A stretch of 64,000 nt of DNA from a virus: positions 4,477-68,476 of the IMG/VR virus record IMGVR_UViG_3300014835_000015; one strand, written 5' to 3'. Shown here in pieces: positions 3 through 56,423 of this stretch. The translations under genes and the position numbers were made by a program. Under the pieces are notes generated by a model that worked only from the letters and a program-made list of their open reading frames with translations, was not told the origin of the DNA and did not search any database. Numbering within the stretch: position 1 is the first letter of the stretch; every line of letters starts with the position of its first letter.

Positions 3-3000
3 TTGTTGGTTCTTAACTGGATCTTTAAATGCTTCTTGAATAGGCTTTAATTCGCTCTGTAAGGCATCAAATTTCGTGTTTACAGCATCAGGTAATAAAG
101 CATCAATCTTTGTCCCAAACGCAGCTAAAACAGCAATTTTGAAGTATTGGTGTAAAGGATTATCAGATGACTTATCTACGATTCTGGTCATACCTTCAGG
201 TACAAAATACCATCTCATCCACTTGTTACTTTGTGGACCTCCAGTCATGTGTTCTCTACCCTGTTTAGCTAACCAGTTAAAGAAATAGATACTACCTGTT
301 TTCTTAGCTGATTCTTCACCATCTTTTACTTCTTGAATATCATTAGATATTTGTCTATCTTTACCTTCTGCACCTTTAGAATTAACCTCTATAGATTTCC
401 ATGTTAGTGGCTTACCCGTACCAATAGCTCTAACAAAATTTTCTATTTGAGATAACTCATGTTTAGCTACCTTAGTATTAGTAGAATAAGCAATGTTAGA
501 GTATCTAAATAAAGCTTCTTTCTCGGTTAAAGTATATTTAGTAGCTGTAGCTTTCCATGTATCTCCAAGACGTTTAAAGAACACTTCTTTAGAATATGGT
601 TTAGTATTAGGTTTTTGTTTATTAAACTCAGTACCTAAAATTTCATCTAACTCTTTACTTATTTTCTTGGTTTCATCTAATAAAGCAATAATATCTTCAG
701 CTACTTGGGGATATTTTTCATCTTCATATTCTTGTGTAGCAATACGAACAAAGTATGTTCCACCATTAAGTTTAGAATCAATATTATCTTGTGTAATTAT
801 AGAGTCAGTAAGTTCATTAACAGTATCTTCATTTAGTGAAGGAAAATATACTGCCATATCTTTTTGTTGTACAAAATGTCTTTCTAAGTATCCTGCTTCA
901 ATTCCTGCATTAAGTATTTGTAACCCAACAGATGCTTCTAATTTACGTTGAGTAAGAATATTTTTAGATTTTATTCCGAGTAATGCTACTGCTTGCGCTC
1001 CAACAGAGTTAGCTTGATAGGTCATACCAACACCTACTGTACTGAACATTCCTTGCATTACAGCATCTACACGTTCATCAGCATCTCTTCCAAAGATAGA
1101 ATTAATCATCTGGTTAGCATTAAAAGCTGAACCAGTAGATGAATTAATAAATGATAGAAGGGATAAAGCAAATGCTGATACTACATTATCGTTTAACTTT
1201 TTATCTTGATGTAGTAATACTAAAGGATCAGCAGTAATATCGTTTGTTTTTTCAAAGTTTATTTTATCTAAAAGAATACCTTTAAATTGTTTTACAAATT
1301 CTTTTAGCTTAGGTACTTCATCTGTATTAGTAAAATACTTTTCAGGTTTAGAAAACAGTCTATCAAGTACATTAGGTACTTTATTAAATATATTTCCTTT
1401 AGCTACTGTTAGATAATCACTAAATCTTCTCTGTACAGTTAATTCACCTTCCTTTAATGCACCTTTATATACTTGTTTACCGTTTCTAAGAACTTGTTTA
1501 CCGTTTTTATCTAATAAAGGTGTACCATTTTCTACAGAAGCATATTCTGTATTATCTTGTAAACCGAGATTACCAAATGATTGCATTAGATAATAAGGTC
1601 TTAAAGAATTTATAATATTAGGTATTAAACCGTATTTACTATCTACATCAAAGTCTTCTTCGTAATTAATTGCAATATCTTGAAGTACGTTAAATGCTTC
1701 TTTAGAAGAGAATCCTTTATTAACTAATTGTTTAAGTAATCCTTTAATCCAGCCTAACTGTTTTACTTCAGTAAATGGAAAGTATTCTTCGGTTACAAAT
1801 TGAAAGTATGTTTCAGCATCTTTAGGTGGTTTAGCTACATCAGTTAAATTAACTTTAGTTTTTACTTCTTCTTTTGGTGTAGCAACAGCAGCTTCTTCTA
1901 AATCAACTTTGTATGTTGTATCCTTAAAAGATAGTTCTTTTACTAATTCAGGAAAGTTATTAGTAAAAAACTCTTGATACTTACTAGGTAAATTACCTTT
2001 AAATTCATTTAAGATTGTTGCTAATTTTTTAATAGAGTTTTCAGATTCAGAAATTTTATTTAATAGCTTCTGAATAGCTTCTTGTTGGACATCAAAACCA
2101 TGATTATATAGTTTAGAATTCATCGTTTTACGTTTAGGAGAGGAAGTATATTCTTTCAGCTTTTGTTGTAAATCTTCTAATTTAGTAAGTAAACCAGGGT
2201 ACTTTAATATTTGAGTGTCTATTTTAGTCTCAGAAGATTTAAGCATACCTTCCTCATCCAAAGATACCTCTGTAGGCTCTGTAGATGCTGTTACAGGCGT
2301 TTCCTCTTCTGAGGTAATAACTTCTTCAGTATTAGTTGTTTCGTTGCTTGTAGGAGATTCTATGTCATCAGGAATATTATCATTAAATGGGATATCCTCA
2401 GGCACAGTAGATAAATCTACTTCACCTTCATTTGGATTATAGGGTCTATCTTTTGAGGGTACATGATCGTCGTCTTGATTTACATTCGTTGAATTTAGAA
2501 CATTCTCATCAGTCTGAGAGGTACTTTCAGGTGTAGAAGTTACTTGTGGTGTAATACCAAAATGAATATCAATTTGTTTTTGAATATTATCTAAAGCTGT
2601 TTTCATAATATTAGCTTCAGAAGATATTTCATTAGCTAATCCTTGAATACCCTGAGAATGTGATTTACCTGTAGTATGAACCAAAGGTATATAATCAAAT
2701 GAAAATCCTTCTATAGGTTGATGTTGTGATAACTCCTGTTCTATACCTTTAATTTCACTTGGTTTAGCCTTAGCTAATTTTTGTGCTAATCTAGCTTTCT
2801 CAATATGGTATGAAACCCATTTAGTATATCTATTTTTTGCAGTATTAACTGCTTTAATAGAACCACCATTATTAAGTACATTAGTTATAATTTTTAGATG
2901 ATCAGTAATACTAAGTTTTTCTGCTCTAGTTCCTTTACCACCAACAGCTATTTCATTACCTACTTCTGACGTAGTTTTATCGTTACGTTTATTAGGATAC

Positions 3001-49257: not shown

Positions 49258-49766
49258 TGACAAAACAAGAAGCAATAGAAATTGCTAAACTTCTGAAAGC
49301 ACTCATCGAATTATCAGCAGTCGAGAAAATCTTATCTACATTCATATCTGCATTTAAAGAGAAGTCAATCATAAAGGATAATGGCTATTACTATTTACAC
49401 GGAAGCTTCAATTTAGGTGGTACAAAGAGTATGAGATTATCTAGCTCTGATCCTAATCTTACTAACTTACCTAGTGGGTCAAAATATGGAAAACTAATCA
49501 AAACTTGCTTTGTTGCACCTAACAATTACATTTTTGCTGGAGCTGATTTTGATAGCCTTGAGGATAAAGTATCAGCTCTTACAACTAAAGACCCTAACAA
49601 ACTTAAAGTCTATGAAGACGGTTATTGTGGGCATTGTTTAAGAGCTTATGCTTACTTCAAAGAACATATGCCTGATATAGAGAATACGGTTGATGGTATT
49701 AACAGTATAGCAAAGCTATACAAGGGGTTGCGGCAGAGAAGTAAAGAACCTACTTTTCTGCTTTAG
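49257..49766 (+). CDS. DNA polymerase middle fragment (thumb, palm motif A, start of motif B), ending at an in-frame TAG
   Basis: LHGSFNLGGTKSMRLSSSDPNLTNLP, GADFDSLED (motif A), GHCLRA, RQRSKEPTFLL*. Confidence 0.9.
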   Translation: MTKQEAIEIAKLLKALIELSAVEKILSTFISAFKEKSIIKDNGYYYLHGSFNLGGTKSMRLSSSDPNLTNLPSGSKYGKLIKTCFVAPNNYIFAGADFDSLEDKVSALTTKDPNKLKVYEDGYCGHCLRAYAYFKEHMPDIENTVDGINSIAKLYKGLRQRSKEPTFLL

Positions 49767-50369
49767 CTAACCTATGGAGGAACTCATTTCGGATTAATAG
49801 ATACGGTTGGTTTACCAAAAGAAACAGCATTATCTATTGAAAATAACTACCATACCTTATACGCAGTGTCTGATGAATGGGTAGCTGATAAAATAGAGCA
49901 AGCAACGAATACAGGTTATGTAGAATTAGCATTCGGAGGAAGGCTTAGAACACCCATATTGAAGCAAACCATATTAGGTAACAGAAATACCCCTTATGAA
50001 GCTAAACAAGAAAGCAGAACAGCAGGTAATGCTCTAGGTCAGTCGTATGGAATGATGTGCAATAGAGCAGCTATTGAAATGCAACAAAGAGTATTAGCTT
50101 CAAAATATGCTTTAGATATTAAACCAGTATGTATGATTCATGATGCCCTGTATTTCCTTATTAAAGACACTGTAGGCTGCGTAGCATGGTTTAATAAGAA
50201 CTTAACTGAATGTATGGCTTGGCAAGAATTAGAAGCAATACAGCATGATACTGTAAAGATTTCAGCTAGTGTAGACTTATTCTACCCTAACTGGAGTACA
50301 TCTATTGGTTTACCAAATAACTCAACAATGAAACAAATACTTGATATTTGTAAAAAGGAATACAAATGA
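49767..50369 (+). CDS. DNA polymerase C-terminal segment, in frame after the TAG
   Basis: LTYGG (rest of motif B), RTAGNALGQS, MIHDALYF (motif C); no convincing independent start. Confidence 0.85.
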   Translation, partial: LTYGGTHFGLIDTVGLPKETALSIENNYHTLYAVSDEWVADKIEQATNTGYVELAFGGRLRTPILKQTILGNRNTPYEAKQESRTAGNALGQSYGMMCNRAAIEMQQRVLASKYALDIKPVCMIHDALYFLIKDTVGCVAWFNKNLTECMAWQELEAIQHDTVKISASVDLFYPNWSTSIGLPNNSTMKQILDICKKEYK

Positions 50370-51031: not shown

Positions 51032-51130
51032 AAAATGTAAATGTGGCTTTCGCCACTTTTACCCACAATAAAAAGGACTTTGATATGTTTTTAACAATAC
51101 TAACTTATTTATTAAGGAGATTTTTATGTA

Positions 51131-51365
51131 GCACTGCTAGGTTAAGCTGTTCCACAGCCTGTACACATAGTAAAATAATACAAGTTCGTAAGAGGTTAGT
51201 TGCTTTAAACCTCCTAAACCGTTTAGAAGAAATAGCAGTGTTTCGTTAGTATAGAGTCATGGCTCTAAGTAGAATAGCTTAATAACTACTTAAATTTGAA
51301 TTCCTGATAAAGAATTGTTAAACTTATTTCGTGTTTTCCCTACGAAGGGTAAAAAGGGATACTAA
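51131..51365 (+). ncRNA. Candidate structured ncRNA (two multibranch domains) upstream of the tRNA
   Basis: Closing stems GCACTGCTA/TAGCAGTGT (51131-51241) and TTAGTAT/ATACTAA (51246-51365) with several internal hairpins; follows a promoter-motif variant. Confidence 0.5.
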
Positions 51366-51370
51366 ATTTC

Positions 51371-51442
51371 ACTCCTCTAGCATAAAGGTTATGCACCCAC
51401 CTCATACTTGGAAAGATACAAGTTCGACTCTTGTGGGGAGTA
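51371..51442 (+). tRNA. tRNA with CAT anticodon (Met or Ile2), weak anticodon stem, no encoded CCA
   Basis: Acceptor ACTCCTC/GGGGAGT, D-arm GCAT/ATGC, loop CT-CAT-AC, T-arm ACAAG-TTCGACT-CTTGT. Confidence 0.75.
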
Positions 51443-51450
51443 TCAAACAT

Positions 51451-51621
51451 GGATAATACAAGAACTATTACTTAGATAAATACTTGCAACTATTTACTAA
51501 GATGTTTGATTGAAGGAATTCTTGTAGCATATTATATAATTTTTAAATCTTATTAGACAGAGCGAAACTGTAGAGTATAATTATATTTATGTCCTTGGTT
51601 CGATTCCAAGATTATCCACCA
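51451..51621 (+). ncRNA. 171-nt tRNA-like RNA with acceptor stem, T-arm and CCA but two elongated internal arms
   Basis: GGATAAT/ATTATCC-A-CCA; T-arm CTTGG-TTCGATT-CCAAG. Confidence 0.65.
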
Positions 51622-51677
51622 AACTATGTGAGATGCGCTCTCATAGTATTCACCGAAGAGGTTATCCTCTAAACTCA

Positions 51678-51712
51678 AACCTATACAGCTTACACTGTAT
51701 GGGTTCTTTTTT
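51678..51712 (+). terminator. Intrinsic terminator closing the ncRNA/tRNA unit
   Basis: AACCTATACAG-CTTACA-CTGTATGGGTT-CTTTTTT. Confidence 0.8.
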
Positions 51713-51935
51713 AAGTTCATTCATGAAATTTGCTTGGATTTTGACGATGAAAAGATACCTATAATTTTAGGTTAGGAGTAAGTGTACTTAAAAATGAATA
51801 AACAATATCAACCTTGGAATCTATATAACTGTCCTATACATTGGTTTAATACAGTTAAAATGAAAACATGTTCATGTAATAGAAATCCTAACTGTAAGCA
51901 ATGTCACGGTTTTGGATATAAAAGAGAAAATAAAA

Positions 51936-56346: not shown

Positions 56347-56423
56347 AAGCTAGTAGTTCAATGGTAGATCATCCTAATAGTAATTAGGTAGGAGTGTTAT
56401 TGGTTCAAATCCAATCCAGCTTA
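56347..56423 (+). tRNA. Degenerate tRNA/pseudo-tRNA with non-canonical anticodon loop
   Basis: AAGCTAG/CCAGCTT acceptor, GTTC-AATGGTA-GATC D-arm, ATTGG-TTCAAAT-CCAAT T-arm. Confidence 0.55.

Follow-up and report, generated by a model that had tools for sequence, protein, structure and literature searches.

An oversized tRNA-like element with an intact tRNA top half in the tRNA island of an N4-like phage

Introduction

What is encoded by a 171-nt stretch of phage DNA that begins and ends as a tRNA gene does, lies just downstream of a called tRNA gene, and holds two long segments in the place of the D-arm and the anticodon arm? An initial annotation, made from the letters of the DNA, had proposed a processed, possibly chargeable tRNA-like RNA that cannot decode normally and that could act as a decoy for anticodon nucleases or RelA or as a ribosome/EF-Tu modulator, and had also considered a tRNA with unusual introns. 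The window, i.e., the whole stretch of DNA analyzed (64,000 nt), is part of a complete virus record of 74,313 bp in IMG/VR. Taxonomically, the phage (31% G+C) is N4-like (Schitoviridae), with a primase 49% identical to those of Escherichia phage Pollock and other N4-like phages, and with genes for a family-A DNA polymerase split by an endonuclease, a ribonucleotide reductase, a thymidylate synthase, and an N4-type exonuclease. The source of this N4-like phage is freshwater.

Results and discussion

Genomic context of the element

The element is located within ~760 nt devoid of open reading frames (ORFs; window positions 51032-51793) that separate a 63-aa ORF from the next gene. Its parts and its immediate neighbors are the following:

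51371-51442, plus strand: tRNA-Met(CAU), the upstream neighbor in the same non-coding unit (ARAGORN; Rfam tRNA, 48.1 bits)
51443-51450, plus strand: 8-nt spacer or 5′ leader which, together with base 51442, is complementary at 9 of 9 positions to 51502-51510 (inverted repeat I3)
51451-51457, plus strand: 5′ strand of the acceptor, GGATAAT, read in the sequence and the same as in the acceptor of real tRNA-Val(GAC) genes
51458-51525, plus strand: arm 1 of the minimum-energy fold, with closing helix 51458-64/51519-25 and inner hairpin 51471-51501
51483-51490, plus strand: arm-1 loop CUUGCAAC, 8 nt (C-UUGCAA-C), on an 11-bp stem
51527-51592, plus strand: arm 2 of the minimum-energy fold, an AU-rich helix with tip hairpin ACAG-AGCGAAA-CUGU at 51557-51571
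51594-51610, plus strand: canonical T-arm, made up of CTTGG (51594-98), TTCGATT (51599-605), and CCAAG (51606-10)
51611-51621, plus strand: 3′ strand of the acceptor, ATTATCC (51611-51617), discriminator A (51618), and encoded CCA (51619-51621), read in the sequence
51623-51714, plus strand: two small hairpins (51623-47 and 51657-70) and an intrinsic terminator (51678-51705 plus a T run), kept in relatives

The two hairpins and the terminator, which is strong, form the end of the non-coding unit, and when the unit was folded as a whole, the minimum-energy structure retained a tRNA-like junction and had the terminator at its end. The arrangement is best explained as a dedicated non-coding transcription unit that comprises a conserved upstream structured RNA, tRNA-Met, the 171-nt element, the two hairpins, and the terminator. 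As an observation in its own right, the non-coding region of ~290 nt that makes up the first part of this unit (51060-51345) is strongly conserved in relatives (L002 5850-6101, L010 1045-1290, and L014 4410-4560), has 46 nt identical in L002, and has no Rfam match. In the phage genome, no genes for a CCA-adding enzyme, RtcB, or tRNA repair were found; with neither a CCA-adding enzyme nor RtcB, the genome gives no pointer to tRNA-centered biology, and we count this against the reading of the element that we favor below.

The tRNA top half

Structurally, the acceptor strands GGATAAT (51451-57) and ATTATCC (51611-17) form Watson-Crick pairs at 7 of 7 positions, and they are joined by a discriminator base and by a 5-bp T-stem whose T-loop conforms to UUCRANY; the initial annotation had thus placed the 7-bp acceptor, the discriminator A, the encoded CCA, and the canonical T-arm correctly. 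A scan of the window for a canonical T-loop on a 5-bp T-stem, followed by CCA and provided with a 7/7 acceptor partner within 420 nt, returned this one site, against 0.017 expected per dinucleotide-shuffled window. The start of the element, described as 8 nt 3′ of the tRNA(CAU), also holds: tRNA-Met(CAU) ends at 51442 and the element begins at 51451, a gap that is ordinary inter-tRNA spacing. The view that the element is tRNA-derived, and that it is placed as a tRNA processed together with its cluster would be, is supported. The tRNA top half of the element is real. Moreover, the identical 171 nt recur in an independently made ENA assembly of this phage (L026; 99.98% identity over 6.2 kb), so that the element is no assembly artifact, and by the same identity this copy offers no variation for analysis.

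Assignment to known RNA classes

Functionally, the proposal that the RNA could not decode normally is well founded, since the element has, at tRNA geometry, no 5-bp stem that ends in a 7-nt anticodon loop, and it drew no tRNA call from either of two programs: ARAGORN returned nothing, including under its intron, relaxed, and mitochondrial settings, and the Rfam tRNA model (RF00005) gave a partial match of 20.7 bits against a cut-off of 29, on 51575-51618 only (the last 44 nt). There is no D-arm carrying G18 G19 and no 5-bp anticodon stem topped by a 7-nt loop; segments of 68 nt and 66 nt stand in their place. A GG at 51515-16, in arm 1, lies where G18 G19 would fall and could conceivably stand in for them. 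The tip loop of arm 2, AGCGAAA, has no U33, and that of arm 1 has 8 nt; read as an anticodon arm, arm 1 would, with 7 + 11 bp and an internal loop, be about twice the normal length and present an 8-nt loop, so that the RNA is not expected to decode on the ribosome. A tmRNA was rejected as well, given that pair 3:70 is A-U, not the alanine-identity pair G3:U70, and that neither ARAGORN -m nor Rfam returned a tmRNA call. That the element goes uncalled shows that much of the content of phage tRNA islands escapes standard tRNA finders.

The window holds a second odd tRNA at 56347-56423 (L002 10956-11036), directly 3′ of the exonuclease gene, with a score of 41 bits under the Rfam tRNA model and an abnormal anticodon region that forms either a 6-nt loop, UAGUAA, or, in the other register, a 12-nt loop. 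Its L002 counterpart has a 7-bp stem with an 11-nt loop, and UAGUAA is common to both. Separately, motif B of the DNA polymerase contains an in-frame TAG (window 49755-49781) and reads PTFLL*LTYGG, versus PTFLLTYDG or PTFALTYQG in relatives; the site, CUU-UAG-CUA, adds two codons, a stop among them, and the polymerase of L014 has another break, a frameshift, at the same spot. Neither RNA could be linked to this in-frame UAG: the element has no CUA anticodon loop, and L002, with a polymerase free of such a stop, also has the tRNA found at 56347.

Folding of the interior

The two long replacement arms of the initial annotation fared less evenly. The minimum-energy fold of the element is indeed a four-way junction with both arms and with the tip loops CUUGCAAC and AGCGAAA, but the stability of its AU-rich interior is no better than that of shuffled sequences (z = 0.0 for element positions 8-143, −1.3 for arm 1, and −0.66 for arm 2), and the whole element has a z of about −1.8. 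The sole outlier in the interior is the 31-nt hairpin at 51471-51501, which reaches z = −6.3 yet only −5 kcal/mol. We thus regard the two long arms as a plausible drawing, a predicted and not a demonstrated structure that finds no support in the statistics or in comparison. From a thermodynamic perspective, the stretch 51442-51510, i.e., the leader plus part of arm 1, folds better than either arm (−11.4 kcal/mol, z = −3.55) and might provide an alternative precursor structure resembling the E2 RNAs described below; the fold of the whole unit favors the tRNA-like junction over this leader-closed hairpin.

Arm 2 also contains a sigma-70-like match (TAGACA-16-TATAAT, 51554-51581), and the promoter-like total of the region is not above that of shuffles. 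No antisense partner was found among the upstream RNA, tRNA-Met, the downstream hairpins, the tRNA at 56347, and the polymerase stop site (duplex energies all at absolute z <1), and TRF found no tandem duplication as a source of arm 1.

Conservation and the tRNA island of related phages

No homolog of the element was found by blastn of 51300-51800 against 50,697 GenBank phage records, by exact 3′-end patterns in IMG/VR and JGI metagenomes, by flank patterns, by nhmmer and blastn in ~15 related loci, or in whole related virus records. The conservation that the initial annotation had itself called for was thus not found, and the closest relatives have other cargo in the slot. In the absence of a homolog there is no covariation and no sign of selection on the element. 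A degenerate version of the 3′-end pattern matched eight times in a genome scan, five of the matches being ordinary tRNA-Val(GAC) genes and the other three lying on L018, L020, and L022. The latter are bacterial MAG contigs, and their RNAs (L018 4464-4583, minus strand; L022 3216-3329, minus strand; L020 about 1400-1585, plus strand) have a T-arm-like hairpin and an ATTATCC-A-CCA end without a 5′ acceptor partner; two of the three are directly 3′ of a tRNA-Ile/tRNA-Ala pair, and one (Flavobacterium) is followed by a terminator.

In all relatives, both flanks of the cargo are conserved, namely the upstream structured region and the downstream hairpins with the terminator, the latter flank beginning at AACTATG, directly 3′ of the cargo CCA, and the cargo between them varies phage by phage. 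L002 has no tRNA-Met and encodes a 148-nt RNA with a 15-bp closing stem (z = −3.0); L010 has another tRNA-Met and a class-II-like tRNA; L011 and L031 carry tRNA-Pro, tRNA-Leu(UAG), tRNA-Gly, two uncalled CCA-bearing tRNA-like genes, and a long-stem RNA of 115 nt; in L029 and L014, several island members, tRNA-Met and the tRNA-Cys-like gene among them, are present as decayed copies. In L028, the exact slot of the 171-nt element is filled by a 102-nt tRNA-like RNA with normal D- and T-arms and a 12-bp “anticodon” arm, to which homology of the element is unsupported (z = 1.6). The tRNA-Pro(UGG) gene, intact in L031 (733-808), is split in L011 (2847-3370) in its variable loop, after ..GCGATAG, by an insert of ~435 nt that codes for a 139-aa ORF and is either an endonuclease insertion or an intron within a phage tRNA gene. 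The 139-aa protein has no Pfam match, and by eye it shows an HNH-type pattern, CxxC...DH...N...CxxCH. Judged from these comparisons, the island is a fast-reshuffling set of tRNAs, decaying tRNAs, and odd tRNA-like RNAs.

Long-stem RNAs of 115-148 nt, with AU-rich closing stems of 12-15 bp, occupy the slot immediately 5′ of the conserved AACTATG hairpins in L002 (6114-6261), L011 (3842-3960), and L029 (about 980-1095). They end in ACCA in L002 and L011 and in ACCT in L029, and by this last ending the CCA of long-stem RNAs is probably not functional. In a distant relative, L003, positions 196-289 encode an RNA of 94 nt that combines a canonical T-arm and ACCA with an acceptor of 7 bp and likewise goes uncalled by ARAGORN and Rfam.

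Possible origin of the element

Several relatives carry an uncalled gene, here termed ‘c’:

L011 3470-3538, also in L031 and L033 and decayed in L029: gene ‘c’, tRNA-Cys(GCA)-like, 72 nt with CCA

Gene ‘c’ scores 27.5 bits with the Rfam tRNA model, just below the cut-off, and has a 4-nt D-loop, T-loop UUUGAUU, discriminator U, CCA, and anticodon loop UUGCAAG (anticodon GCA, Cys); in L029, its anticodon is GUA and its T-stem is broken. By synteny, the decayed tRNA-Met ortholog of L029 is followed by ‘c’ and the tRNA-Met of the window by the 171-nt element, and the hexamer UUGCAA of the arm-1 loop is the one found in the anticodon loop of ‘c’. In addition to this shared place and hexamer, both genes have an encoded CCA and their T-loops differ by one base, whereas the element is ~100 nt longer, has A and not U as its discriminator, and places its 8-nt loop on a stem of 11 bp. 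Four acceptor pairs and three T-stem pairs differ between the two by paired changes, which would be covariation if the genes are orthologous, and we do not regard covariation as proven. The similarity of the two genes is marginal, at z = 2.4 for a spliced version of the element and p = 0.02-0.10 for positions 40-77 against ‘c’ 5-42. By position, the element is the counterpart of ‘c’, and it is most likely a remodeled tRNA gene that carries extra RNA modules in a tRNA frame.

Bacterial tRNA-Val(GAC) genes (e.g., L021 and L023) provide another likeness, with the same GGAUAAU/AUUAUCC acceptor, A73, CCA, and a GUC before the T-stem, and differ in that the element has neither a D-arm nor a GAC anticodon arm. 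Recognition by ValRS depends on A35 and C36, so without that anticodon arm valine charging of the element is not expected.

A further conserved, structured RNA of ~120 nt, here ‘E2’, is encoded in the tRNA island of relatives (L010 1309-1426, L011 2600-2717, L014 4640-4754, L029 703-817, and L031 495-612). Its closing stem, of 13 bp, contains five compensatory columns, and the palindrome UUGCAA invariably lies in the loop of an inner hairpin. Rfam gave no match to this RNA, and the window phage lacks it. A descriptor of ACAAR, a UUGCAA-loop hairpin, and TTGAYT, which was designed post hoc, after the element had been seen, matches once in the E2 of each of these five relatives and in the window only at 51484, where 0.063 matches were expected. 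A covariance model of E2 (R1, alignment A3) gave no match on 51451-51621 at E ≤ 10, and the corresponding nhmmer search gave E = 96. We treat the link to E2 through UUGCAA as a lead only.

Interpretation and alternative explanations

We propose, and hold at about an even chance, that the element encodes a tRNA-like RNA specific to this lineage, which is oversized, does not decode, shares the build of T4 rnaC, and is cut out by RNase P. RNase P and 3′ maturation are known to need no more of a tRNA than its acceptor/T-arm minihelix with CCA, and a 171-nt RNA with a tRNA top half is consequently the expected product. Mechanistically, the non-coding unit would be transcribed as a single precursor, in which this minihelix with its encoded CCA would suffice for RNase P to cut at G51451 and in which 3′ trimming would stop at the CCA, leaving a stable RNA of ~171 nt with a normal tRNA top half, a Val-type acceptor, A73, and T-loop UUCGAUU. 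An over-long body with no usable anticodon arm would give this RNA no adaptor role on the ribosome, and the mature RNA may instead serve as a decoy for tRNA-binding host factors or as a scaffold. The intact and non-random top half, the spacing after tRNA-Met, the whole-unit fold, the identical second assembly, the layout shared with rnaC, the synteny and weak similarity with ‘c’, and the other uncalled CCA-bearing tRNA-like RNAs in the island of the relatives speak for this proposal. Against it, apart from the gene content of the phage, stand the missing homologs, the differing cargo in the slot of the nearest relatives, an interior no more stable than shuffled sequence, and the visible decay of island members such as the ‘c’ of L029, with its broken T-stem and changed anticodon.

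The missing conservation and the weak fold of the interior leave a smaller but still appreciable chance that we are looking at a mere rearranged, dying tRNA gene, i.e., a Cys- or Val-like gene wrecked by recombination, endonuclease-driven insertion, and partial deletion, which would have no function of its own, although its transcription, and even its cleavage by RNase P, might persist. Such a relic would be at home in an island so plastic that tRNA-Met and tRNA-Cys-like copies have decayed in L029 and L014 and that the tRNA-Pro of L011 is split in its variable loop by the 139-aa ORF with the L031 gene intact; the orphan status of the element and its chance-level interior fit as well, and the junction before its T-arm (..TGTC/CTTGG) lies at the same place as the L011 insertion (..AG/GTC ATTGG). 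Random decay, however, should hurt stems as it did in L029, and here a 7/7 acceptor, a perfect T-arm, and CCA are kept with no parental body left; the lack of any trace of a parental D- or anticodon arm beside perfectly complementary acceptor strands thus argues against simple insertional decay. That the 171 nt are not one RNA at all we consider improbable: 51442-51510 would then form a hairpin domain of its own, closed by the leader and equivalent to a shortened E2, followed by a 3′ tRNA leftover, with the GGATAAT/ATTATCC pairing fortuitous or no more than an alternative fold. The 9/9 complementarity of 51442-50 and 51502-10, the z = −3.55 of the domain, which exceeds that of either arm, the stem, compensatory columns, and invariant UUGCAA loop of the relatives’ E2, and the descriptor that finds all five of these and the window at 51484 alone are all consistent with two separate pieces. 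The descriptor, though, was built with the element in view, both the covariance model and the profile HMM of E2 miss the element, the whole-unit fold prefers the tRNA-like junction, and a strict 7-mer complement at tRNA spacing has a chance of ~1e-3, as estimated from base composition.

A working tRNA with one or two introns, spliced to a canonical adaptor, is very improbable. The interrupted tRNA-Pro of L011, with an insert that is only a candidate intron, shows that such interruptions occur in the group, and the suggestion of unusual introns had been part of the initial annotation, but it did not survive the search for them: ARAGORN in intron mode returned nothing, and exhaustive deletion, in which 1,624 variants covered every way to reach 70-98 nt by removal of one segment and a further 30,294 variants lacked two segments, yielded only weak calls of the ‘Tyr(AUA)/Ile/Asn’ type with bad D-arms and a UUAUAUU loop. 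A group I intron would need more than the ~100 nt of the insert, no Rfam intron family was matched, and we know of no bacterial mechanism for splicing such an intron-bearing tRNA. Something of a long shot is the idea that in this phage group the self-complementary tRNA-Cys hexamer UUGCAA is shown on three scaffolds (‘c’, E2, and the 171-nt RNA), the element being a natural tRNA scaffold that would present a decoy or sponge by means of RNase P processing and tRNA-like stability; its target would be a host reader of the tRNA-Cys anticodon loop (e.g., an anticodon nuclease), or it would form kissing contacts with the anticodon loops of tRNA-Cys or tRNA-Ala.

Phage tRNA islands repeatedly hold non-decoding RNAs with a tRNA top half, and one such RNA has seemingly formed recently at a tRNA-Cys-like site in an N4-like freshwater phage; by this seemingly recent formation, the element may show how such RNAs arise. 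If expressed, it would be a compact natural case of a tRNA frame used to process and stabilize foreign RNA modules.

Comparison with T4 species 1 RNA

To our knowledge, T4 species 1 RNA (rnaC) has stood unexplained for about 50 years. Together with species 2 RNA (rnaD), it is the closest known system to the element. The rnaC gene, at NC_000866 70908-71046, is annotated as “small, stable RNA; species 1 RNA” and adjoins tRNA-Arg in the tRNA cluster, and the legend to Fig. 1 of PMC2330249 has RNA species I and II drawn in the T4 tRNA region; beyond that paper and the record annotation, we found no open-access account of the structure of species 1 RNA. As folded here, rnaC shares with the element paired ends, two long arms, a T-arm flush with the 3′ strand, and a place in a phage tRNA cluster; it is oversized too (139 nt versus 171 nt), and neither RNA has an Rfam family. 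No sequence similarity between the two was detected by blastn against a phage collection containing T4. They differ in that rnaC folds far better than chance (z = −4.6), whereas the body of the element is AU-rich and weakly folded; the orphan status of the element, its encoded CCA, and its perfect acceptor are further differences. In layout, the element has all that marks the rnaC type, i.e., a tRNA cluster, paired ends, a flush T-arm, and a two-arm oversized body, the arms being without statistical support. By analogy, then, it is best filed as an orphan addition to a known, unexplained kind, the oversized tRNA-like RNAs of phage tRNA clusters, of which T4 species 1 RNA is the archetype.
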